The notes under the pieces are model-generated. The model saw nothing but the letters and a program-made list of their open reading frames with translations. It did not search any database and was not told where the DNA came from. A DNA stretch of 64,000 bases. Source: a bacterium (lineage in GTDB: Bacteria > Zhuqueibacterota > Zhuqueibacteria > Residuimicrobiales > Krinioviventaceae). The first letter of the stretch is position 1; each line of letters opens with the position of its first letter. Below are positions 1,976 through 20,947 of the stretch, in pieces. A program made the position numbers and the translations under genes. The stretch covers positions 4,160,001 to 4,224,000 of the forward strand of contig OY843751.1 in assembly GCA_963693055.1 (NCBI GenBank), given 5' to 3'.

Positions 1976-3295
1976 TTAGTAATTTACTCTACCGGTAGCC
2001 TGTTCCCAATCAAAATAAGCAGCAAGATAATCATACACTGCGGAATAATATCCCAACTGTGCCTGATCAAACATCAACCTCGCGTCTTTTAATTCCAACT
2101 GGGTAGACAATCCCGATTCTGTTGTAGTCTCGGTAATATGAAAGGCTTTTTCTGCAGTTTCCCATGTAGCCTTTGCGGAAGCAATTCGCTGATTTGCTTC
2201 CTTTAAACGTAAATACACATTCGATACTTCATTGGTAATATCTTCACGGGTTTTTTCCATTTGCAGTCTTGTTTTTTCCAGTTCAACCTGTGCTTTCTGT
2301 ACTTCTGCAAGCCGGTAACCACCGGTAAAAATGGGAAGCGATAAATTTAAACCGGCAAATAACAACTTGTTCTCTTCATCGAATTTATAATAATTAGATT
2401 GAGAAGTATATGCATAAGCCACTTGACCGGTTAACGTAGGTAAAAATGCTCCTTTTTTAGCTCCCACATTTGTAGTGCGCAGCTTTTCTTCCCATTTCAG
2501 AGCATTCATATCCGGTCGTTTATCAAAAACCACAGACAATTCCTGCATTTCAGGCAACGGAGGAACCGTTTCCAGGTTTCCTTTTAATTCAATTTCAGAG
2601 TTAACATCAATTCCCGCAAAATTTTTAAGCGTATTCATAACAATCATTTGATTACGCCTGGCTTGTTCACTTTGCGGCACAGCGCTGCGCCAGCGGGTTT
2701 CAGCTTGCAACAAATCCAGCTCAGAGATTTGCCCATTATCAAAACGCAGCTTCATAGTATTATAATTTTCAAATGCGTTTGCCTCAGCCGCTTCACTAAC
2801 TTTTCTTACCTTTTCCAGCAAAAGACACTGATAAAACAACTGCTTTGCTCCGGTCATAATCGCCTGATTACTGGCTTTGTAAATGTATTCGGTCAATTCC
2901 TCATATTGTCTGGCAGCCTTGATTGCACTGCCAACAGTAGGACTAAACAGAGTCTGCTGCAAAGCCAGAGTTGCACTGTATTCATTGTCACGTTTAATCG
3001 GTGCTTTAATCACACCACCGACTCCCAGCATAAGAGAACCTGCATCAAAATACATATAATAATCGGTCAAATTCCGGATATAACCGGCTTCTGCAGCCAC
3101 CATAGGAAGCGCTTGAGAAACAGCTTCCTTTTTTTGAACATCTGCCAACTCACGGTCTTTATCTGCAAGTTTTAAATCTTTACTATGCTCTTTCACAACA
3201 TCCAGATAGGCGTCAAGATCAAGCGTCTCTGCCGACAGATACTGAAATCCGCACAATACCAGTAATGTCATATATATGAAAATCTTTTTCATCAA
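1976..3295 (-). CDS. TolC-family outer membrane efflux protein
   Basis: Signal peptide, two OEP-type repeats (RFDNGQISELDLLQAE; LSLPIFTGG), downstream of the RND gene. Confidence 0.93.
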   Translation of the reverse strand: MMKKIFIYMTLLVLCGFQYLSAETLDLDAYLDVVKEHSKDLKLADKDRELADVQKKEAVSQALPMVAAEAGYIRNLTDYYMYFDAGSLMLGVGGVIKAPIKRDNEYSATLALQQTLFSPTVGSAIKAARQYEELTEYIYKASNQAIMTGAKQLFYQCLLLEKVRKVSEAAEANAFENYNTMKLRFDNGQISELDLLQAETRWRSAVPQSEQARRNQMIVMNTLKNFAGIDVNSEIELKGNLETVPPLPEMQELSVVFDKRPDMNALKWEEKLRTTNVGAKKGAFLPTLTGQVAYAYTSQSNYYKFDEENKLLFAGLNLSLPIFTGGYRLAEVQKAQVELEKTRLQMEKTREDITNEVSNVYLRLKEANQRIASAKATWETAEKAFHITETTTESGLSTQLELKDARLMFDQAQLGYYSAVYDYLAAYFDWEQATGRVNY

Positions 3296-3332
3296 AATTA
3301 TCTCCTTTGGTACATTTCAACGAGCGAATACT

Positions 3333-6300
3333 TTACGCCTGCTTTTTCACCTTTTGTCTACTTGTCAAATAATAAAGTGTGGGTATCACAATCAGGGCCA
3401 GCACTGTTGAAATCAGCAGACCACCAATACTCACAACACCCATCGGTTGACGAAATTCTCGTCCCGAGGCACCAATACCCAATGCCATAGGCAGCATACC
3501 CAGAATAATAGCAATAGAAGACATGAGAATCGGTTTCAATTTTGTGGGACATGCTTCAACAAGGGCGTCATGCACATTATACCCCTTTTGACGGACCAGC
3601 AGGTTGGTATAATCCAAAAGCAAAATCGCGTTATTCACCACAATGCCTAAAAGCATAATAATTGCCATCATTGAAATAATGTTCATGGAAATTCCGGTTA
3701 TGTACAAACCTCCAAAAACACCAATCATCGCTAATGGAACAGTTCCCAAAATCAACAGAGGTTGTGTAAAACTTTCCAAAATTGCGGCAAGCAGCATATA
3801 AGTCAAAACTATAGCCAATACAAAGGTAAAAAGCATGCTTTGTATAGTACTTTTCATTTCTTCGGCCATACCTGCCCATTCAACTTTATATCCTGGTGGC
3901 AATTCAAGGTCTGCAAGACGACTATCTATCTCATTCGTAACATCTCCCATTGGAACACCAGGTGCTGTTGATGCACCAAAGTCAATCATTTTGAATTTAT
4001 CCTTGTGTAAAATTCGGGTAAATCCCTGGGTATATTTAATATCTGCAAGTTGCGAAATCTTGAATGTTCCCGCAGGAGCAACAACAGAAATACTCTCAAC
4101 TTCTTCAGGAGTATCCACAGATTCATCTGTTAAACTCACACGAATATCATACTCTTCACCCTGATCACGGAACTTTGTTGTTACCAAACCTTCTAATGAA
4201 CCGCGCAAAGTCATTGCCAGATCATAAATGGTTAATCCCGCATTTGAAAGTTTTTCACGGTCAGGTACAATCGTAATCTCTGGTTTACCAGGGCGTGAGC
4301 TGGTATTCAGGTTAATCAATCCGGGAACATCATGAATGCGTTCAACAATTTCTCTACGGTATTTTTCCAATTCCTGCACATCCTGTCCCATTAATGTAAA
4401 ATTAACAGGGGCTGTCCCCATACCCATTGAAGAAGTTGCCTCAATTCTCAATCGAACATTCGGAAGATCAGATAACTTTTGTATTAATTCTGCAGCCATA
4501 TGCCCTGTTGTTACATCACGCAAAGAGACATCTACCAATTTTACATTCACCAATGCCATATTGGTACCCGTATCCATATCATTGATCTTTCCCAAAGTTG
4601 TTACAATGGTTTTAACTTCCGAATATTCCTCAATACGGGTTTGCATTTCTTTTAATACCTGGGCAGTTTCATTTAAATTGTAACCCGTTGGCAGCTCTAC
4701 TTCCATTTTGATATCGCCTTCATCCAGCTTGGGCATAAAGTCAAAACCAATCTGAGATGCCATAAAAAAACTACCAACAAACATAAATATACTAACCAAA
4801 ATCACCATAAAGCTTCGCATTTTGTTCTTGATGATCCAACTCAGTAACCGCTTATACCAATCTTCCCAGGCAGTAAACATGGCATTCATGCGTTTGCCAA
4901 TGGGATGTTTTTTGGTATCATGCTCGGGAATAATTAACGAAGCCAGCATTGGTGTTAGTGTAAAAGACATTAATAATGAAAATATAGTTGCATAAACAAC
5001 GGTCAAAGCAAACTCTTTAAACATCATTCCCACAATACTGCCCATATTGGCAATGGGTAAAAATACCGCAATATTTGTCATTGTCGATGCAATTACGGCA
5101 ACCACCACCTCAGCCGTACCTTTTGCAGAAGCTTCACGGCGACTGTTACCCATATTTTTATGTCTGAATATATTTTCAAGCACAACAACAGAGTTGGAAA
5201 CAAGAACACCCACCGCGGTTGAAAGTCCCATCAATGTCATCAGGTTCAGAGTAAATCCTGAAAGTTGCAATAACATAAATGTGGATATGATAGACATGGG
5301 CATTGATAAAGCAACAATAATGGTCGAACGTAAATCGCTTAAAAAGAATAGTAATACAAGGCCGGTTAAAATTACACCCATAAAAATATTAGAAAGAGTA
5401 TCTTTAACAGAACCTTCAATCAAAATAGAACTATCTTTTATAATTGACAGTTCACACCCCTCAGGCAACAATTCCTGCAATTCCGGCATTCTTTCCTTAA
5501 CAGCTGTTGCAATACGCACAGCGTTACCATCTTTGGCTTTAACCAGTCCCAAAACCACAACATTATCATTAGTAAGTTTGTTAACATTATCTACAAATGT
5601 AGAACGTACCCGTACCTCTTCGGTAGCATCTCGCACCCGGGCAAGTTCAGATAGCGGCTTCATACCAAAACCGGTTGGCACTTTTAATTGTTTCAAATCT
5701 TCAACAGTATCAAATTCACCTTCCAAACGGACTGAATATTCCTGAGAATGTTGTTTAAAATTACCACCAGGCATATCCATATTTTGCATCGAAAGCATGC
5801 CAGCCAGTTGACTAATAGATATTTTCTGCTGCAAGATTGTTCGGTTATCAAATTCTACCTGAATTTCACGCTCACCACCACCGGTTACAGATACCTCACC
5901 AACACCTTGAATTTGTGAAAAACGGTCAGTCAGTGTTTTATCTGCCAGCTCATATAATTCTGTCATTTCAATATTACCGGACAAAACAATATTCATGATC
6001 GGTTCAGAATTAATATCAAATTTCTGAATAATCGGTCTGTCAGCGTCATCCGGCATATCATTCAATATTGCATCAACCTTGTCTTTCACCTCCTGATTGG
6101 CAATATCAACATCTTTACTGAGTTTAAATCGTATAATTACAAACGATGCAGATTCCATAGAATAGGATTGTATATAATCTATCCCGCTGACAGTTGAAAT
6201 TGCATCTTCAATTCTTTTTGTAATCTGCAGCTCCGTTTCCTGCGGACCCGCTCCAGGATAAACCGTCTGCACCGTGATCATAGGAAACGTCATGTCAGGT

Positions 6301-6410
6301 GTAAGATCCAGGTTTAATCCAAAATATGATATAGCCCCAAACATCAATAATGCCAGCAAAAGCATAGAAATCATGATGGGCCGTTTTATGGATATATCAG
6401 ATAAAAACAT
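3333..6410 (-). CDS. RND efflux permease, AcrB/AcrD/AcrF family
   Basis: 1025 aa, MFLSDISIKRP start, GVLVSNSVVVLENI and GIVVNNAILLLDY segments, multi-TM layout. Confidence 0.96.
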   Translation of the reverse strand: MFLSDISIKRPIMISMLLLALLMFGAISYFGLNLDLTPDMTFPMITVQTVYPGAGPQETELQITKRIEDAISTVSGIDYIQSYSMESASFVIIRFKLSKDVDIANQEVKDKVDAILNDMPDDADRPIIQKFDINSEPIMNIVLSGNIEMTELYELADKTLTDRFSQIQGVGEVSVTGGGEREIQVEFDNRTILQQKISISQLAGMLSMQNMDMPGGNFKQHSQEYSVRLEGEFDTVEDLKQLKVPTGFGMKPLSELARVRDATEEVRVRSTFVDNVNKLTNDNVVVLGLVKAKDGNAVRIATAVKERMPELQELLPEGCELSIIKDSSILIEGSVKDTLSNIFMGVILTGLVLLFFLSDLRSTIIVALSMPMSIISTFMLLQLSGFTLNLMTLMGLSTAVGVLVSNSVVVLENIFRHKNMGNSRREASAKGTAEVVVAVIASTMTNIAVFLPIANMGSIVGMMFKEFALTVVYATIFSLLMSFTLTPMLASLIIPEHDTKKHPIGKRMNAMFTAWEDWYKRLLSWIIKNKMRSFMVILVSIFMFVGSFFMASQIGFDFMPKLDEGDIKMEVELPTGYNLNETAQVLKEMQTRIEEYSEVKTIVTTLGKINDMDTGTNMALVNVKLVDVSLRDVTTGHMAAELIQKLSDLPNVRLRIEATSSMGMGTAPVNFTLMGQDVQELEKYRREIVERIHDVPGLINLNTSSRPGKPEITIVPDREKLSNAGLTIYDLAMTLRGSLEGLVTTKFRDQGEEYDIRVSLTDESVDTPEEVESISVVAPAGTFKISQLADIKYTQGFTRILHKDKFKMIDFGASTAPGVPMGDVTNEIDSRLADLELPPGYKVEWAGMAEEMKSTIQSMLFTFVLAIVLTYMLLAAILESFTQPLLILGTVPLAMIGVFGGLYITGISMNIISMMAIIMLLGIVVNNAILLLDYTNLLVRQKGYNVHDALVEACPTKLKPILMSSIAIILGMLPMALGIGASGREFRQPMGVVSIGGLLISTVLALIVIPTLYYLTSRQKVKKQA

Positions 6411-6481
6411 AAATTCAAATCCTTATACGTTAATCGATTTTTTAATATTCCACAATACTGGAATCTATACAAAAATATTTA

Positions 6482-7519
6482 TCAGGAATCAGCAATTACT
6501 CTAATTTTTTCACCATCCTTTAATAACATCTGACCACCAACAATTAACTGATCACCAACAGATAAACCTTCAACAACTTCAATATCCAATCCCTGGGTTC
6601 TTCCGGTTTTTATCTCACGTTTTTGTGCTTTACCACTCTGGTTCACAAAAACATAATTTGAATTTTCTTCCACAATTACATTTTTTCTTTCAACAATAAT
6701 GGTTTCGTCACCTTCACCACTGTATATTGTAATTTCTGCGTTAATTCCGCTTTTAAAACGTTTACCGGAATTATTCAGCTCTACCCATACACCAAAAGCT
6801 TGCATAGATGTATTTAATGATAAATCAACCTGGCTTACTCTGCCTTCAATTATCAAACCTTGCCATTTCGCAGTTACATTGTTACCAACTTTTATCACAG
6901 CAGCCTGACTTTCAGAAGCCCACAGTTTACCTTTCAACTTTTGAGTCTGACTGACCGTAAACAAAGCATCACCAGGACTCACATTATCAGATTCCTGCAC
7001 ATTGATCTGAGAAATAGTTCCACTGATAGGTGCCTTAACCATTATAGATTGCCTTACCGCATCCCAATTTGCTTCAGCTACTTTGAATTGGGTTTTTGTA
7101 TTATCAAAATCCTGCAAAGAAATACCACCGCTGTTATACAGATTGGTCATACGGTCCAAAGTTGTTTTTGCCAATTCGTAAGCTGATTTGGTTTGATTAT
7201 ATTGCGCGGATGGGTTGTCAGTAGGAAAGCTAATAACAACCGCGTCTTTTTCTACATAATCACCAACTTTGTAATAGATCTTTTCAACCTTGTCAGCAAC
7301 CATTGCACTTGCGTTTGATTCTTGTATACCACTCAAAGTAGAATGAAAAGTATTTTCTATACTGAACTTGTTTTTTTCAATCTGTTTAATTGTAACAGGT
7401 ACACCTTTTTCTTTATATATCTGCTCAAGACTTTTTGATTGTGATTCACTTTTTGTACAAGAGCTTGTAATAAAAACTGTGATTATTGCAATTAAAAATA
7501 TTACGATTCGGTTTCGCAT
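6482..7519 (-). CDS. RND periplasmic adaptor (MFP), lipoprotein
   Basis: Lipobox TSSC, VKAPISG motif, C-terminal VEGLSVGDQLIVGGQ. Confidence 0.93.
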   Translation of the reverse strand: MRNRIVIFLIAIITVFITSSCTKSESQSKSLEQIYKEKGVPVTIKQIEKNKFSIENTFHSTLSGIQESNASAMVADKVEKIYYKVGDYVEKDAVVISFPTDNPSAQYNQTKSAYELAKTTLDRMTNLYNSGGISLQDFDNTKTQFKVAEANWDAVRQSIMVKAPISGTISQINVQESDNVSPGDALFTVSQTQKLKGKLWASESQAAVIKVGNNVTAKWQGLIIEGRVSQVDLSLNTSMQAFGVWVELNNSGKRFKSGINAEITIYSGEGDETIIVERKNVIVEENSNYVFVNQSGKAQKREIKTGRTQGLDIEVVEGLSVGDQLIVGGQMLLKDGEKIRVIADS

Positions 7520-7550
7520 TCATGCCTCCATGATTTCAATTGGTTGTAAT

Positions 7551-7572
7551 ATACATTCATATATGCATGTAT
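7551..7572. promoter_or_regulatory. Putative TetR/AcrR operator upstream of MFP
   Basis: Near-perfect palindrome ATACATTCATATATGCATGTAT. Confidence 0.6.
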
Positions 7573-7603
7573 TGTATGTAAAAAATTTTTATTTTACAAA
7601 CTC

Positions 7604-8236
7604 TTATTTCTCTACATTGTCGTCTTCATCCTTATTTTTTAATCCGTTAATAAAAATATCAAATAATGCCTCTGGATTTTTAACATCCACCATATTCCGT
7701 CTTCTTTTCACATAAATATCTGCAAAACCTGCAATAGTAGCACTCATCAAACTGCTAAAATGATGTGGATCAATAGGACGAATCTCACCTTGATTGATTC
7801 CGTCTTGCACAATGGATGTAAACATATTAAAAAACTTTTTTCCGCGTTCCTGAAAATATTCTTCTATTTCAGGCATTTCATGTATCATTCGCTTGTCCAT
7901 AAAATCAAGCTGCTGATTTTCAAGAAATTCTTTATCTTCTTTTAGCTTTTTTATAAATACATAAAAAATCTTTTCCAGCTTTTGTAATGGGGTAATATCT
8001 TCTTCTATGACATTATCAAATATCTCAAAAAACGGGTCAAGTCGTTCTTTGAACAAAGCAATCAATAATTCTTTTTTATTCCCAAAATGCCAATAAATTG
8101 CACCTCTGGTTAATCCCACATGCTCAGCAACATCGGATAAACGGAATGCGTTGAATCCTTTTTCGCTGATCACATGCAATGCAGATTTAAGTAATAATAT
8201 TCGTGTTTGTTCGGCTTCTTCTTTGGTACGTCGCAT
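7604..8236 (-). CDS. TetR/AcrR family transcriptional regulator
   Basis: MRRTKEEAEQTR...GLTRGAIYWHFGNK HTH, closely AcrR-like. Confidence 0.95.
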   Translation of the reverse strand: MRRTKEEAEQTRILLLKSALHVISEKGFNAFRLSDVAEHVGLTRGAIYWHFGNKKELLIALFKERLDPFFEIFDNVIEEDITPLQKLEKIFYVFIKKLKEDKEFLENQQLDFMDKRMIHEMPEIEEYFQERGKKFFNMFTSIVQDGINQGEIRPIDPHHFSSLMSATIAGFADIYVKRRRNMVDVKNPEALFDIFINGLKNKDEDDNVEK

Positions 8237-8331: not shown

Positions 8332-9543
8332 TTATTTTGTGTCCCAATAATTTATCGAGGGATCCAGAGTATAAAGTGACATAATCTCTGAACTCAGGTC
8401 GGTGCGGTTTATCCCGTTCACTTTGAACAATATTTCAAAACATTCAGTATTGCCCTGGTTTGTTTTAAATTTCTCCTGGACCGTTTTTAACAGTTGGGGA
8501 TTGGTTAAATACTTGACACTTTGTATTACTCCAATATCATGAAATGAAAGAAATAGCATTACTGTATTTCGGTTGGGACCCGAATACTTGGCTACTATGC
8601 TATAATCGTCATGCATTGACTCTGATTTGCCGATTTGATGATATTCTGTGGCTTCCTTTCCGGTTTTATCAATGAGCGATACGATGTTCCCTTCTGTATC
8701 AATCGTAAAATTAGAATTTAAGAAAAAATTATTAAAAAAACCACTAGTCTTGAATAATCCAATAAAAATCACATTATATTGCTGTAGATATTGCATATTA
8801 AACCGTGACATGAGACAAATCTCAAAATCTTGATCTCCCTCTATCAACACAGGCATTAATGCTTTAAGATAAAAAGGAGTACCATAGGCAAGATAACTAA
8901 AATCAATTTCCTGATAATGAATACTGCTATTGCTATTTTCAGATATATAGTGCTGAAAATCATTGCTGTTATTCACACTATAATCTCGTATTACAGCCGA
9001 CTGTTTCGTTATATCGTCTGTTTGTTGAAAGAAATAATAATCGCCCAGTACTATCATTACTGGTTTTTCGTCATGTACTATATCCTTCCAAATAGAAGAA
9101 TTAGATACACCCATCTGCCCTTGCTGCCAAATCAGATAAACCCATACAAACACTACTATTCCCAGGCATACCAGAGCTCCAATTGCAAGAATTTTCCACA
9201 TATTATTCCTGGTATATATCGAATCTTTTTTTTCAATAAATTCAATTTTATAGCGTCCTTTAGGTATCCTAAAGACAACCTTATCGTCCCTGCCTTCTGT
9301 CAGATAATAATGTTCAAGCTTTTTACGCAGTAAATGGATCTTTACTCTAACAAATGTAAAGTCCTGGTTTGTATTACCAGAGGTATCCCTTTGAAAAAGA
9401 TCATAGGCAATTTGTGATTCTTTGGGTATTTCCCCATCACGCGTTGCCTCATACAAATAGATCAGTAACTGCCGGTCATTTTCCGATTTAAACTCGCTAC
9501 TGCTTAAAATTTTCTCAAGATGTGAATCATAAACCGTATTCAT
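8332..9543 (-). CDS. Membrane-anchored putative transcriptional regulator (N-terminal wHTH-like domain, one TM, extracytoplasmic domain)
   Basis: VRVKIHLLRKKLEHYY...FRIPKGRY resembles an OmpR/ToxR-type recognition helix and wing; a single TM (ILAIGALVCLGIVVFVWVYLIW) precedes a ~260 aa C-terminal domain. Confidence 0.65.
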   Translation of the reverse strand: MNTVYDSHLEKILSSSEFKSENDRQLLIYLYEATRDGEIPKESQIAYDLFQRDTSGNTNQDFTFVRVKIHLLRKKLEHYYLTEGRDDKVVFRIPKGRYKIEFIEKKDSIYTRNNMWKILAIGALVCLGIVVFVWVYLIWQQGQMGVSNSSIWKDIVHDEKPVMIVLGDYYFFQQTDDITKQSAVIRDYSVNNSNDFQHYISENSNSSIHYQEIDFSYLAYGTPFYLKALMPVLIEGDQDFEICLMSRFNMQYLQQYNVIFIGLFKTSGFFNNFFLNSNFTIDTEGNIVSLIDKTGKEATEYHQIGKSESMHDDYSIVAKYSGPNRNTVMLFLSFHDIGVIQSVKYLTNPQLLKTVQEKFKTNQGNTECFEILFKVNGINRTDLSSEIMSLYTLDPSINYWDTK

Positions 9544-9661: not shown

Positions 9662-11230
9662 ATGAAAAACATTATGCAATCTGGTAAAGCAATTACAGTT
9701 TTAACTGTACTGCGGGTAATTGTAGGTTGGCATTTTTTATATGAAGGAATTGCCAAACTCGTAAATCCAAACTGGTCAGCTGCTGCATACTTGATGGAAT
9801 CCAAATGGCTTTTTTCCGGCTTTTTCCATTGGATCATCGCTAATCCCACAATCCTGAATATTGTTGATTTTCTCAATATCTGGGGACTCATTTTTATTGG
9901 TCTCGGATTATTTGTGGGCTTGTTTACACGCACCGCAAGTTATGCGGGTATTTTTTTGCTAATGCTTTATTATGTCGCTAATCCCCCCTTTGTTCACTCT
10001 AGCGCACCATCAGAAGGACATTATTACATCATAAACAAAAACCTCATAGAAGCCGCAATCCTTCTCCTGTTTGCTTTGATGAATAAAGAATCCCTATGGG
10101 GAATTGACAGGCTTTTATCATTCTATATGCAAAAACGCAAAAACAAAACCTTCCCTGAAGCAGACAATCATGACCTTAAAGAATTTGTTGATAATCCAAG
10201 AAGAGAGCTCTTGAAAAATCTGGTTACTCTGCCGGTGATGGGTGCCGCTTTTTTCGGTGTAGCTAAAAAACATGGTTGGATCAGCTTTGAAGAAAACAAT
10301 CTACAGGCTGCAGACGCACAGACAAGTGCTTCAGTAATATTCTCAAGTGGTATGGATATTAAAGAATTAAAAGCTCAAGTTCCTCATGGAAAGATCAAAG
10401 ACAACCAAATCAGCCGCATTATCGTTGGCGGCAACCTGGTTAGCGGATTTGCCCATTCACGTGATCTCATATATGTCTCTTCCATTTTGAAAAAATATTT
10501 CACAGATGAAAAAGTAATTGAAACCCTGTGGCTATGTGAAGCATGCGGAATCAATACCGCTCTGCTCAGAACCGATGAAAGCACCATCCGAATTCTTGAT
10601 AAATATTGGAAACGAGGCGGAAAAATCCAATGGCTTGCCCAAACATATCCCAAAGAAAATGACTTTACAAATGTACAAATGGCAATTGACAATGGCGCCA
10701 TGGGAGCATTCTGCCAGGGAGCAATTGCAGATACATTTATTCGAGACAATAAACTGGATGATTTGGAAAAAACAATCTCTTTTATCAGAAGCAAAGGTAT
10801 CATTGCCGGTACCGCCGCGCATTCACTCCAGGTACCAATCGTTTGTGAAAAATCGGGATTGGATCTGGATTTCTATATGAAAACCCTGCACCATGATAAA
10901 TACTGGTCAGCTCACCCCAAAGAAATGCGTATCGAATTCAACCAGTTACAACCCAATAACGATGATCACAACCGCTACCATGATAACATCTGGTGCATCA
11001 ACCCTGAAGAAACCGTAGAGTTTTTCAAAAACGTTACCACTCCCATGATCGCTTACAAAGTTTTGGCTGCTGGCGCAATTGATCCCAAAGAGGGTTTACA
11101 TTACGTTTTTAGTAGTGGTGCCGACTTTGCATGTGTAGGTATGTTTGATTTTCAGGTAGTTGAAAACGCAAATATTACACATGATATTCTAAGCCAAAAC
11201 CTCGCACGCGAACGTAAATGGTATGCTTAA
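9662..11230 (+). CDS. DoxX-family membrane domain fused via an internal twin-arginine motif to an aldo/keto-reductase-like TIM-barrel domain
   Basis: LRVIVGWHFLYEGIAK DoxX motif with 4 TMs; NPRRELLK plus a hydrophobic stretch; ISRIIVGGN...IAYKVLAAG AKR-like signatures. Confidence 0.75.
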   Translation: MKNIMQSGKAITVLTVLRVIVGWHFLYEGIAKLVNPNWSAAAYLMESKWLFSGFFHWIIANPTILNIVDFLNIWGLIFIGLGLFVGLFTRTASYAGIFLLMLYYVANPPFVHSSAPSEGHYYIINKNLIEAAILLLFALMNKESLWGIDRLLSFYMQKRKNKTFPEADNHDLKEFVDNPRRELLKNLVTLPVMGAAFFGVAKKHGWISFEENNLQAADAQTSASVIFSSGMDIKELKAQVPHGKIKDNQISRIIVGGNLVSGFAHSRDLIYVSSILKKYFTDEKVIETLWLCEACGINTALLRTDESTIRILDKYWKRGGKIQWLAQTYPKENDFTNVQMAIDNGAMGAFCQGAIADTFIRDNKLDDLEKTISFIRSKGIIAGTAAHSLQVPIVCEKSGLDLDFYMKTLHHDKYWSAHPKEMRIEFNQLQPNNDDHNRYHDNIWCINPEETVEFFKNVTTPMIAYKVLAAGAIDPKEGLHYVFSSGADFACVGMFDFQVVENANITHDILSQNLARERKWYA

Positions 11231-11258: not shown

Positions 11259-11288
11259 AGGTCCCGGGTTTCACCTGGGGCCTTTTTT
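11259..11288 (+). terminator. Intrinsic terminator
   Basis: AGGTCCCGGG-TTTCA-CCTGGGGCCT followed by a T-run. Confidence 0.75.
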
Positions 11289-11420
11289 AAATTCTTAAAA
11301 AAGAAAAAAGTAAAAGACCATTCTCTTTGCATAATATAAAAGCAATCACATATTATTTTTCTTGAAAGTTTGCTAAAATAGTTTATATTAATATCGTCAA
11401 ATAATGTTTTGGATGCTTAA

Positions 11421-17812: not shown

Positions 17813-19540
17813 TTACCATCCCGCTATCTTGAATTTCACAATATCTTTGGGTGTCAACTTTTCACTCCCCCTTGCTTTCTGTATGGATTTCACATAGGCT
17901 TTATCTACACCATGGATTTTAAAATCTATTAATTCAGATATGGTAATATCATTCAACCCGGTTGAATGAATATCTTTAATATATTGGGAATCAATACCAT
18001 GAATTTTCATTTCTATAAGCTTGGATTTACTTGTATTTTTGTATCCATATTTACCAAGCACTGTAATCATTTCCGGATCAATTCCCTGTATTTTAAAATC
18101 AACAACATCAGATAATGTTACATTTTTCAAACCCGCATTCTGAAGCTCTCTGACATAGTCCGGAGATACGCCATGAATTTTCATTTCTATAATTTTCGAA
18201 TACTTGATATCTGAAAAACCCAGCTTAACAAATGCATTTACATAAAAAGGCTCAACGCCATGAATTTTAAATTCTTCAAGCTGTTCAAGCGTTAAATTTT
18301 CAAGCCCTGTCTTGTGCATTTCAATAATATAGTCTGGTTCCACTCCATGAATCGTTAAATCTACAACTGTTGAGGCCGGCATATCTTTATAGCCCAAGTC
18401 ACCAAGCGCTTTTAACAATTCAGGCTCCACGCCATGCATTTTGAATTCAACCAGTTTCGAAATGGGTAGCGCTTCAAATCCCATCTGCTGCATTTCGCGA
18501 ATGTATTGCGGACGAATATCATGAATTTTCAATTGAATAATTTCAGAATTTTTAATTTGATCATAACCCAACGCTGTAATCCCTTTAACAAATTCGGGCT
18601 CCACGCCATGCATTTTAAATTCGGTCAATTGTTCAAGAGTGAAATTTTTTAATCCCGCATTGTGCATCTTTTTAATATAATCGGGTGAAACATCCTGTAT
18701 TGTCAAATCAACAATTTGTGAAAGAGATATATCATGATAGCCCAATTCATCTAGTGCTTTTACTAATTCGGGTTTTACATCATGTATTTTAAATTCAACC
18801 AGCTTGGAGATTGAAAGCTGATGAAAACCGGCAATATCCATTTCCTGAATATAGCCTGTACTTACACCATGAATCTTGAACGCAACCAAATCTTCAGCAT
18901 CCACATTTTTGTATCCCATAGCCGCAAGGGATTGAATAAAATCCAGATCTACACCATGAATCCGAAAACTTACCAAATCATCTGCACTCAAATCCCGGTA
19001 TCCATATTGATGGAGCGATTTAATAAAATCGATACTGACATTAAAAATAGCAAAAGAAACAAGATCTTTGCTGTTTATTCTTTCATACCCAAGTTTTTTC
19101 AAATCATGAACATATTTTTTATCAATATTACCAAGGCACAAATGCATCAACTGTGTGTCTGACACATCACCAGAAAGGTTCTTTTGCAAAAAGGATTCAA
19201 ATTCCGAATTTGCAATAAACTCAAAAAGTCCAAAGCCTTTGTCTGCACTTGTTCTGCCATTCAATATCAACTTGCCGGCATCACTTTGCAGATAAAATGG
19301 GCCCTCACTGTTCTTGTTTAAATTTTGAAAATCTCTAAAACTGAACAAACCGCTGGTTTCCCACTCTTTCATATTAGACCAGGAACGTTCATTAAACATC
19401 AGTTTCAATTTTAAACTATCACCATTGAATCTAGCTACCCATTCCCCATTTATTGAACCGGCAAACAATTCCACGGACATGAACAACAAAAATATTCCCA
19501 TTTGTATCATTACTTGTTTTTTCATAACATTACTCATCAA
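17813..19540 (-). CDS. Exported protein with ~15 tandem 29-aa helical repeats (KIHGVxPxYIxxLxxxG...)
   Basis: Signal peptide ending ELFA; repeats counted by eye in the translation. Confidence 0.85.
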   Translation of the reverse strand: MMSNVMKKQVMIQMGIFLLFMSVELFAGSINGEWVARFNGDSLKLKLMFNERSWSNMKEWETSGLFSFRDFQNLNKNSEGPFYLQSDAGKLILNGRTSADKGFGLFEFIANSEFESFLQKNLSGDVSDTQLMHLCLGNIDKKYVHDLKKLGYERINSKDLVSFAIFNVSIDFIKSLHQYGYRDLSADDLVSFRIHGVDLDFIQSLAAMGYKNVDAEDLVAFKIHGVSTGYIQEMDIAGFHQLSISKLVEFKIHDVKPELVKALDELGYHDISLSQIVDLTIQDVSPDYIKKMHNAGLKNFTLEQLTEFKMHGVEPEFVKGITALGYDQIKNSEIIQLKIHDIRPQYIREMQQMGFEALPISKLVEFKMHGVEPELLKALGDLGYKDMPASTVVDLTIHGVEPDYIIEMHKTGLENLTLEQLEEFKIHGVEPFYVNAFVKLGFSDIKYSKIIEMKIHGVSPDYVRELQNAGLKNVTLSDVVDFKIQGIDPEMITVLGKYGYKNTSKSKLIEMKIHGIDSQYIKDIHSTGLNDITISELIDFKIHGVDKAYVKSIQKARGSEKLTPKDIVKFKIAGW

Positions 19541-19582
19541 TTTTAAAATTACTGTCTTCCTGCAGGCCGGGTTTCAATAAGA

Positions 19583-19610
19583 TAAACCAGTATTCATCCA
19601 AAAAGTTACA
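19583..19610 (-). promoter_or_regulatory. Putative ECF promoter TGTAAC-N17-GTTTA for the repeat-protein gene
   Basis: Same motif and spacing as the site upstream of the sigma gene. Confidence 0.65.
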
Positions 19611-20403
19611 ACAAGGTCAGAATGCTTTTCTCAATTTTATCCCGTACGTTTTGATCAAGATCCCGATTAGCAAGAAGCTGCTCAAAAGAATATATCGACT
19701 CTTTTTCATGACAAGATACCATTATATCCGCCAGCATTAACAATACCTGGGAGTCCTTTTGAACATTGATGGCATGCACCAATCCTTCCCTCACCATAGG
19801 GTACTCACTGAACCGCGCCAGTGACTGTACTGCCATTAGTCGCACATCCATATTGGGATCACTATTCAATGTCATAAGCAGCGCGTGCACTATAGCAACG
19901 CCCAAAGTATCCAGATCACTTACTCTGCTTACACCCTGTAACCGCTGCACCGCAGATGGATGCTGGATAAGCGTCAACGTCACGAGCTGTTTCATATCAC
20001 TCATTTCTGTTTGCATGGTATTTAAACGGTGCTCATAATCAGTTTGGGGTGTAAACCGTCCTCCCAAAAACCAACCGGTCATCAAGAGTACCAAGCTGTA
20101 TACAGCAACAGCAAACACCCTGGGAGAAAAATCCAAAAAGGCTCTAAATCCCAAAAACCAGTTCAAAAACCTTTCGTCCTTGTGTTCCTGCATTGCGAGC
20201 ATATCATAAAAGCGGGTATCCAATCTCTCACTGGGCTCAGGTACATCAAGTTTATCCAGGTTTTCATTCACAGATTCGAGCGACTCAAACTCTTTCATAT
20301 CGTAACCGGCTTTAATCAATGCAGCCTCTAGCCGATGTCGTTCATCAGAACCCGGACGGCTCTCCAGATATGCCAATACCAATAATTCTATATTTTTATC
20401 CAT
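19606..20403 (-). CDS. Anti-sigma factor (cytoplasmic N-terminus, TM, coiled coil, HEAT-repeat domain)
   Basis: Overlaps the ECF stop; single TM; LNSDPNMDVRLMAVQSL is HEAT-like. Confidence 0.8.
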   Translation of the reverse strand: MDKNIELLVLAYLESRPGSDERHRLEAALIKAGYDMKEFESLESVNENLDKLDVPEPSERLDTRFYDMLAMQEHKDERFLNWFLGFRAFLDFSPRVFAVAVYSLVLLMTGWFLGGRFTPQTDYEHRLNTMQTEMSDMKQLVTLTLIQHPSAVQRLQGVSRVSDLDTLGVAIVHALLMTLNSDPNMDVRLMAVQSLARFSEYPMVREGLVHAINVQKDSQVLLMLADIMVSCHEKESIYSFEQLLANRDLDQNVRDKIEKSILTLL

Positions 20404-20947
20404 GATTCATATTTTCCATTTGTAAATAAATATCTTTTAATTCATTCAATGCCCGGAACACCTTGATCTTGACATTTCCTTCCGAGCAGTTTAGTATCTT
20501 TCCTATCTCTTTGTATTTTAATCCCTGATATTTACTCAAAATTAATATTTCACGTTTATTTTTGTCCAGTTTATTCAGTGCTTTATCAAGCATTTGCAGA
20601 TTTTCTTTTTGAATATATTGTGTGTCATGATCAAAATCGTCCTCCAGTTCCGCTTCCAACTTTTCCGGCATGTCCTTGTATCGGTTATTCTTGCGGGTGT
20701 GATCAACAAAAACATTATGCGCTATCTGGTACATCCAGGCTGAAAAAGAACCATATCCTGAAAACCTTTGTCTGTATTTTAACATGCTCATAAACACATT
20801 CTGAACAAGGTCTTCGCTGCTTTGATGGTTCCGCGTCAAACGAAAAAAATATGCAAACAAATTCTGTTTATAACGTTCAAACAGAATTGCCAGTTTATCT
20901 GTCTCTCCGGATTTTACCCAAAGCATAATCTCTATATCGGAATACAG
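20396..20947 (-). CDS. ECF sigma-70 family RNA polymerase sigma factor
   Basis: SEDLVQNVF and FSAWMYQIAHN (region 2); LKYKEIGKILNCSEGNVKIKVFRA (region 4). Likely CTG start at 20947 after GGAGG; the track uses ATG 20926. Confidence 0.92.
   Translation of the reverse strand: MYSDIEIMLWVKSGETDKLAILFERYKQNLFAYFFRLTRNHQSSEDLVQNVFMSMLKYRQRFSGYGSFSAWMYQIAHNVFVDHTRKNNRYKDMPEKLEAELEDDFDHDTQYIQKENLQMLDKALNKLDKNKREILILSKYQGLKYKEIGKILNCSEGNVKIKVFRALNELKDIYLQMENMNHG

Follow-up and report, generated by a model that had tools for sequence, protein, structure and literature searches.

A DoxX-barrel fusion with an internal twin arginine and a flavinylation-like tether: a likely dual Sec-Tat protein and a candidate periplasmic oxidoreductase

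In this study, we have explored a 64,000-nucleotide stretch of DNA (hereafter the window; assembly GCA_963693055.1, contig OY843751.1, positions 4,160,001 to 4,224,000) from a bacterium of the Krinioviventaceae, and in particular one open reading frame (ORF; 9662..11230, + strand) that encodes a protein of 522 residues. Based on Pfam, AlphaFold2 and homologs, this protein joins a DoxX membrane domain, a twin-arginine (RR) anchor helix, a flavinylation-like tether and a barrel of the aldo-keto reductase (AKR) fold. Our analyses demonstrate that this fusion is a real, conserved and apparently undescribed combination of two known mechanisms. The architecture, the predicted fold, the conservation of both the RR and the tether motif, and the linkage between the helix and DoxX are direct results, all of them computational. 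We consider dual targeting of the fusion by the general secretory (Sec) and twin-arginine translocation (Tat) pathways to be likely, because the RR is invariant in 83/83 representative fusions and because unfused relatives of the barrel mostly carry Tat-type signals.

We propose a model in which Sec would insert the four DoxX helices, the barrel would fold in the cytoplasm with its cofactor, and Tat would export the folded barrel through the internal RR helix. This helix would stay uncleaved as a fifth helix, likely packed on DoxX, and ApbE would add flavin mononucleotide (FMN) to the flexible tether, from which the covalent FMN would shuttle electrons between the presumed NAD(P) of the barrel and quinone at DoxX. 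The parts of this model differ in strength. Tat export and a periplasmic location of the barrel are highly probable, and flavinylation of the tether, judged from its motif, is probable. Electron exchange with quinone through DoxX has about an even chance of being right, and we would put the complete chain (a membrane-tethered periplasmic oxidoreductase using Sec and Tat, tether FMN and quinone at DoxX) at a similar level. It is known that DoxD is a subunit of a thiosulfate:quinone oxidoreductase (PMC6335251), and how periplasmic NAD(P) enzymes become re-oxidised is a recognised gap in knowledge (PMC8121099).

A frameshift or an assembly artefact is ruled out as the origin of the fusion, because full-length homologs number in the hundreds and the source genome carries a paralog as well. 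Of 8,000 candidates scored in a first search, 6,606 were retained as related, fused and unfused together; the best 120 homologs are full-length fusions of 516-532 residues, with 59-96% identity and query coverage of 96-100%. Searching 1.8 billion representatives retrieved fusions down to about 35% identity, along with many barrel-only proteins of 300-360 residues. At least 594 stretches of GTDB genomes encode a relative, and the best 80 of these come from Bacteroidota, Acidobacteriota, KSB1, Calditrichota, Gemmatimonadota, Planctomycetota, Lentisphaerae and Hydrogenedentes. The distribution is patchy: the DoxX subfamily is found in 34 of 41 close relatives and in 6 of 201 genomes of a Bacteroidota-centred phylum sample, and the barrel in 8 of 81 genomes of a Planctomycetota-centred sample. 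Besides the ORF studied here, the source genome has another fusion, together with a stand-alone DoxX and a gene for the barrel only, and Parabacteroides sp. PH5-46 is a cultured carrier of both a fusion with a canonical tether motif (L042) and a split pair of DoxX with a Gfo/Idh/MocA-family protein (L217). At three loci (L031, L199 and L200) the fusion gene lies in two frames, which likely reflects long-read assembly frameshifts instead of true splits. More distant relatives of the barrel occur in genomes of the Planctomycetota sample (L226-L231 and L233); at least one of them (L228) begins directly at the barrel with no signal, from which a cytoplasmic branch of the barrel family may exist.

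The DoxX domain (9683..10084, +) is predicted to have four transmembrane (TM) helices with both termini inside, on the basis of Pfam, AlphaFold2 and counts of lysine plus arginine (K+R). Pfam DoxX (PF07681) matches residues 14-102 (E 2.8e-7; 31.5 bits against a gathering score of 23.6), and DoxD (PF04173) matches residues 15-162 just below its cut-off (21.7 against 22.7 bits). The AlphaFold2 model, built on a 145-sequence alignment, has a mean predicted local distance difference test score (pLDDT) of 90 and places long N-terminal helices at residues 8-34, 62-85, 89-106 and 126-139, followed by a linker helix. Over 21 aligned fusions, K+R averages 0.14 in loop 3, before TM4, and 8.9 in the basic linker after TM4 (10085..10198, +), which is predicted to be cytoplasmic and varies in length and sequence between homologs; this distribution fits an inside N-terminus, four crossings and an inside RR. 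A preliminary description of this DNA, made from the sequence alone, had claimed four TM helices of the DoxX type and a basic cytoplasmic linker, and had made its reading depend on an even number of helices. Both features were recovered here, and the predicted number is even (four), with the RR on the cytoplasmic side. R18, E28, K32, R90 and E130 are conserved in the domain, charged residues being conserved within its helices, and a sequence search of the PDB with the DoxX profile found no solved relative. A conserved histidine pair of the kind that serves as heme ligands is absent from the aligned homologs (H24 is nearly conserved, H56 and H120 are not), and the idea of DoxX as a heme cytochrome was dropped.

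The motif NPRRELLK begins at residue 178, and its twin arginine (R180-R181; 10199..10204, +) lies exactly where the preliminary description had located it. That description had called for a check of RR conservation, which we found to be complete, in 121/121 close homologs (query included) and in 83/83 representatives obtained by clustering 330 full-length fusions at 65% identity. In the wider set of 261 fusions, a lenient pattern finds the RR in all 259 that bear the linker (two fragments were dropped) and the strict pattern RR..P..G in 237. The DoxX-linked anchor helix (10205..10270, +) follows, with 16 uncharged residues and then K202-K203; it is the predicted fifth, Tat-inserted helix, and residues 179-203 are confidently modelled as helical (pLDDT 86-88). 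Its family pattern is RR-E-L-L-K-x-L-x-x-x-P-x-x-G-x-F. At least 13 uncharged residues stand behind the RR in 82 of the 83 representatives; every one of the 83 has one or more K/R behind the helix, and 84% have two or more. Dual Sec-Tat proteins are described as having an even helix count, a cytoplasmic RR before the last helix and basic residues behind it, these residues being a Sec-avoidance feature (Tooke 2017, PMC5449189); the invariant RR, the uncharged helix and the K/R behind it thus form the arrangement reported for such proteins. N-terminal RR signals were found by the lenient pattern in 56 of the 64 unfused barrels with enough N-terminal sequence, and the barrel-only paralog of the source genome (L003:8597-9457) has an ordinary Tat-type N-terminal signal. 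TatC, whose presence is permissive for Tat export only, is encoded in the source genome, and a check of fusion genomes (50 of the 80 fusion loci) found it in 49 of 50, the sole miss being a 3.0 Mb assembly.

Between the helix and the barrel, AlphaFold2 predicts a disordered tether (residues 208-228), and in it we found the sequence D218-A-Q-T-S-A-S224 (10313..10333, +), which resembles an ApbE flavinylation motif with S224 (10331-10333) as the predicted FMN acceptor. The preliminary description was right on the architecture of the module and overlooked both this motif and the reuse of the module with other enzymes. Comparing the tethers of the 83 fusions with the 36 unfused barrels that have classical signals, [ST][GS]A[ST] occurs in 68 fusions (mean 0.9 and maximum 4 after shuffling) versus one unfused barrel, D-x-x-[ST]-x-A-[ST] in 55 (shuffled 0.3) versus none, and the canonical D-x-x-[ST]-G-A-[ST] in 27 (shuffled 0.02) versus none. 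The background of the motif in the source genome is at most 0.006 per 35 residues, and its form is constant while its distance from the helix varies. The canonical motif is D-x-x-[S/T]-G-A-[S/T] (PMC12052999), and DAQTSAS has the same shape as DGRSSAS, a verified acceptor in trypanosome fumarate reductase (10.1101/2020.12.30.424822). Some fusions have Arg at position 5, as does an ORF, probably NqrB, of an NQR-like operon in the source genome. ApbE is encoded twice in the source genome, one copy (genome 5481043-5482119) being linked to NQR, and is present in 50/50 fusion genomes, and apbE is the next gene after the fusion in two of the 80 loci (L038 and L047). This evidence from ApbE is supportive of flavinylation, not decisive.

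The C-terminal part of the protein (10376..11227, +) is an AKR-fold (beta/alpha)8 barrel lacking the AKR catalytic tetrad, as judged from the structure model, fold searches and alignment. Modelled alone, the C-terminal 292 residues form a triosephosphate isomerase (TIM) barrel with a pLDDT of 97. AKRs lead both fold searches and AKR-family enzymes take ranks 1-21; the top match is 4exa (Z 20.5, root-mean-square deviation 2.8 A over 225 residues), and the closest structures, PA4992 (4exa) and L-galactose dehydrogenase (9w6y), share 12-15% identity. Sequence methods gave little: Pfam and NCBIfam hold nothing for the C-terminal 290 residues of the protein itself, PDB searches with the whole protein and with the barrel profile found no solved relative, and a profile comparison with three canonical AKRs aligned 68 columns with a probability of 37%. 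In the ESM Atlas, the barrel falls in unnamed or automatically named clusters only; the automatic name "NADH:flavin oxidoreductase" was set aside, as the fold searches favour AKR. Among 100 sequences, a polar set comprising H265, R267, D268, Y271, H387, D403, K407, K466 and D496 is near-invariant, and the stretches K466-x-L-A-x-G and G493-M-x-D-x-Q are conserved; these two stretches (beta7/beta8) resemble the nucleotide-binding end of AKRs. With the tetrad lost and a different polar set near-invariant, we regard the barrel as an AKR-fold protein and not as a member of the AKR family, and its chemistry is probably its own. The preliminary term "AKR-like" therefore stands for the fold and fails for the catalytic tetrad.

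The same DoxX and helix are reused with other redox enzymes. In the source genome, a Gfo/Idh/MocA gene (L002:7159-8580) precedes the stand-alone DoxX (L002:8630-9115), and its product begins with a helix of the same type; this pair (L002:7159-9115; genome C1 6113158-6115114) is a split form of the module. A helix profile trained on fused-barrel helices only, leaving out the two fusions of the source genome, was run against its 9,778 ORFs; these two fusions scored 61.6 and 60.5, the DoxX-adjacent Gfo 42.9 and the next protein 20.0, the other 36 Gfo-like proteins scoring at most 15. Among 80 metagenome loci with relatives of this Gfo, a single one has the anchor helix, and that one alone adjoins DoxX; a visual check put at about 60 the number of the remaining 79 loci with 0.6 kb or more of downstream sequence. 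A Gfo without DoxX (L087) has a classical Tat signal. In relatives, 26 of the best 30 stand-alone DoxX loci carry an anchor-helix Gfo next to DoxX or at a distance of one gene, with four not assessable, and so do 6/6 DoxX loci of the Bacteroidota sample, with Gfo proteins of a distant clade; the genomes behind these stand-alone loci are kin, not independent. We also found 12 proteins (P0228, P0381, P0382 and P0384-P0392; 11 full-length and one fragment; 561-596 residues) in which DoxX and the RR helix precede an FMN hydroxy-acid dehydrogenase (PF01070). Unfused relatives of this dehydrogenase carry N-terminal RR signals, which to our knowledge are unusual in the family, and the PF01070 fusions are a second candidate dual Sec-Tat family. 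By profile and gene adjacency, we have shown that this type of RR helix is strictly linked to this DoxX subfamily. In a quick tree of 82 DoxX domains, the domains cluster by partner type; the backbone does not resolve, the outgroup was unusable, and the tree gives no order of events.

Based on this reuse, we tentatively suggest, as somewhat less than an even bet, that the DoxX subfamily could serve dehydrogenases exported by Tat as a general socket that couples them to quinone. The Tat signal, left uncleaved, would act as the docking helix and complete the bundle of DoxX helices, the subfamily would serve, fused or in trans, at least three unrelated enzyme families (a new AKR-fold family, Gfo/Idh/MocA and FMN hydroxy-acid dehydrogenases), and in the AKR-fold fusions the tether FMN would re-oxidise periplasmic NAD(P)H. 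If true, this would give a function to a branch of DoxX, add a large family to the dual Sec-Tat proteins and define a new class of ApbE substrates.

Several observations weigh against the periplasmic, quinone-coupled reading of the fusion. The RR helix, described as weakly hydrophobic in the preliminary description, is not shown to be so by the Kyte-Doolittle scale: its mean of 1.63 lies within the range of the Sec helices (1.16-1.87) and above TM1 (1.16) and TM3 (1.28), so that it is not clearly less hydrophobic than these. TatC and ApbE are common anyway, being present in 11 and 8 of 14 control genomes, respectively. The tether motif DAQTSAS is non-canonical, with Ser at positions 5 and 7, and changes such as these are reported to lower flavinylation (PMC12052999). 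Pfam Aldo_ket_red matches only 2 of 100 members of the barrel family (best E 0.02), and the 80 fusion loci do not share a conserved operon that would name a substrate. The Asp-Tyr-Lys-His tetrad is not kept, so that catalysis and NAD(P) binding by the barrel are presumptive: the AKR His aligns to Q352 (Q in 35, H in 19 and M in 12 of 100 sequences), and in a by-eye placement based on the strand register and on AKR motifs, the Asp, Tyr and Lys positions correspond to L301, a gapped loop and Q327. The same loss would be expected if the barrel bound a ligand without catalysis and the fusion were a periplasmic sensor or redox-signalling device; SmbA (6gtm), a nucleotide receptor of the AKR fold, is itself among the fold matches (Z 16.3) and would be the precedent for such a domain. 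We hold this to be improbable, as the near-invariant polar residues at the strand ends (H265, R267, D268, Y271, H387, K407 and K466) are what an active site would be expected to show, the protein has no cytoplasmic output domain and the interchangeable partners of DoxX are enzymes.

Behind the helix of the Gfo proteins paired with DoxX, no flavinylation motif is seen, and the FMN-dehydrogenase fusions have a canonical tether motif in 2/12 and an altered one in most others, so covalent FMN is not a general requirement. This would suit a fusion that is exported and tethered with DoxX as a mere anchor or assembly partner, the enzyme recycling a tightly bound NAD(P) internally, like glucose-fructose oxidoreductase, or performing redox-neutral chemistry with no link to quinone. 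Free Tat-type forms of close relatives, both of the barrel and of Gfo, do occur away from any DoxX gene, DoxX lacks the conserved heme-ligand histidine pair, and internal cofactor recycling has been proposed for the periplasmic BT2158 (PMC8121099). We nevertheless find this unlikely, since it leaves unexplained a flavinylation-like motif that is almost confined to fused barrels, the adjacent apbE genes and the conserved charged residues of the DoxX helices, and does not account for all three partners being redox folds. A different possibility is that the RR is a relic of a signal peptide, the helix being re-entrant or lying on the surface of DoxX, and that the barrel is cytoplasmic, where it would use free NAD(P)H and receive FMN from a cytoplasmic ApbE. 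Free NAD(P) is indeed cytoplasmic, the Phe of the Tat consensus is mostly lost (kept in 5/83 fusions versus 32/36 unfused barrels) and K/R flank the helix on both sides. In addition, one ApbE of the source genome has no evident signal peptide, which means that the tether motif alone does not place the tether outside. However, both arginines are invariant within an otherwise variable linker, separate Gfo proteins have this very helix as their N-terminal RRxFL signal (with one weak match to Pfam TAT_signal among them, E 0.0006, below cut-off), and basic residues behind the helix are the expected Sec-avoidance feature; a cytoplasmic barrel is thus hardly probable. Finally, Tat export could be followed by signal peptidase cleavage behind the helix, releasing a soluble enzyme and leaving the fusion as a means of co-expression only. 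The signals of the unfused barrels look cleavable and A-x-A follows the helix in 19/83 fusions; this A-x-A is not conserved, however, and the helix has its own P-x-x-G face, conserved and found only with DoxX, which makes release the least probable of these alternatives.

Dual Sec-Tat proteins, also termed "Class IV Tat substrates" (PMC13673990), include the actinobacterial Rieske protein Sco2149, the heme-molybdenum cofactor protein Sco3746, the MLMS-1 polyferredoxin and the long form of YkuE (Tooke 2017, PMC5449189). The fusion is like them in its even number of helices, the inside RR before the last helix, the basic residues behind it and the C-terminal globular domain, and in having split forms as separate membrane and Tat-exported proteins. 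Unlike them, it has DoxX as membrane part, an AKR-fold passenger instead of a metal-cofactor domain and a flavinylation-like tether, and the Phe of its Tat consensus is mostly replaced. The class-defining paper describes four such membrane protein families (Tooke 2017, PMC5449189), to which the DoxX-barrel family would add a large fifth.

Extracytosolic proteins flavinylated by ApbE include NqrB/C, RnfD/G, NosR, PceC, DUF2271 and DUF3570, and FMN_red carries its motif on an unstructured extension (PMC8238504, PMC11334425, PMC12052999). The fusion shares with these substrates a seven-residue D-x-x-[ST]-[GS]-A-[ST], predicted to lie outside and beside a membrane domain, with apbE adjacent at two loci; it differs in the absence of an FMN_bind domain, in carrying the motif on a free tether with DoxX as the membrane partner, and in a motif that is often non-canonical at positions 1 and 5. 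As in the thiosulfate:quinone oxidoreductase DoxDA, a DoxD/DoxX membrane domain has a catalytic partner, either within one polypeptide or as a separate protein, whereas DoxA has no match in the fusion protein at E values up to 1 and the partners are of the AKR-fold, Gfo/Idh/MocA or FMN_dh types. It is established that enzymes of the class of the Zymomonas glucose-fructose oxidoreductase and Bacteroides BT2158 are exported by Tat folded and with their nicotinamide cofactor in place (PMC8121099), as is predicted for the fusion; those enzymes are soluble and thought to recycle their cofactor on a second sugar, while the fusion has a membrane module. With the AKR superfamily (PF00248), the barrel shares the fold with its N-terminal hairpin, and differs in its predicted export and membrane tether and in not keeping the tetrad. 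Our work would thus offer a possible answer to the role of DoxX proteins, and to how Tat-exported NAD(P) enzymes dispose of electrons in a compartment without free NAD(P).

As for precedent, "DoxX" and "DoxD" do not appear in the main text of Tooke 2017 (PMC5449189), whose supplements and online candidate lists may hold unnamed members, nor "DoxX" in those of Meheust 2021 and Huang 2024 (PMC8238504, PMC11334425) or of a 2026 review of Tat (PMC13673990), whose supplements may do likewise. Among the matches listed by the literature searches, which mostly left subscription journals aside, we found no description of DoxX together with a twin arginine or Tat, an aldo-keto reductase, Gfo/Idh/MocA or ApbE. 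A 118-member cluster of DoxD/DoxX-Rieske fusions from Actinomycetota in the ESM Atlas (score 0.76) is no more than a lead, in which the Rieske domain that follows DoxX might represent a further design with dual targeting.

The neighbours of the fusion are variable and lean to exported sugar enzymes. The commonest is Gfo/Idh/MocA, in 22/80 loci, with 34 copies in 0.98 Mb of loci versus 37 in the 6.5 Mb source genome; this enrichment, in a crude cross-organism comparison, hints at sugar chemistry. Sulfur-oxidation genes are not among the recurrent neighbours of these loci. It is possible, though somewhat less likely than not, that the substrate of the barrel is sugar-like and is oxidised; the reaction could also run in the reductive direction. 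Checked against the literature, a link to the BT2156-2160 operon of Bacteroides comes down to an analogy only. About 1.3 kb downstream of the Gfo-DoxX unit of the source genome lies a 3-keto-disaccharide hydrolase (PF06439), and in Parabacteroides sp. PH5-46 (L217) such a hydrolase, DoxX and an anchor-helix Gfo stand in one run, which suggests that the split module may be tied to a 3-ketoglycoside pathway. In relatives (L209-L212 and L214), the anchor-helix Gfo and DoxX recurrently cluster with three further genes, whose products are discoidin-like, glycosyltransferase-like (a membrane protein of the PMT_2 type) and an ApbE lacking an evident signal peptide; in the source genome (L166), the PMT_2-type protein and the signal-less ApbE sit apart from the Gfo-DoxX pair.

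In the window, a hairpin resembling an intrinsic terminator (11 pairs and a T run; 11259..11290, +) stands directly 3' of the stop codon of the fusion ORF; the scan used a consensus only and found 3 such sites versus 1.2 expected. Together with the divergent gene upstream, this suggests that the ORF may be expressed as a single-gene transcript. The divergent gene (8332-9543, -) encodes 403 residues, in which a single hydrophobic helix stands between a soluble N-terminal domain and a large C-terminal one, with no match in Pfam or NCBIfam; it has the look of a membrane-spanning one-component regulator and might control the fusion gene. Further on the minus strand (1976-8236) lies an ordinary efflux operon, with a TetR regulator followed by an apparent membrane-fusion protein, a resistance-nodulation-division (RND) transporter and an outer-membrane factor, Pfam confirmation being for TetR only. 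At 17813-20926 (-), the window encodes an extracytoplasmic function (ECF)-type sigma factor, an anti-sigma-like membrane protein and an exported protein of 575 residues that is built of many short imperfect repeats.

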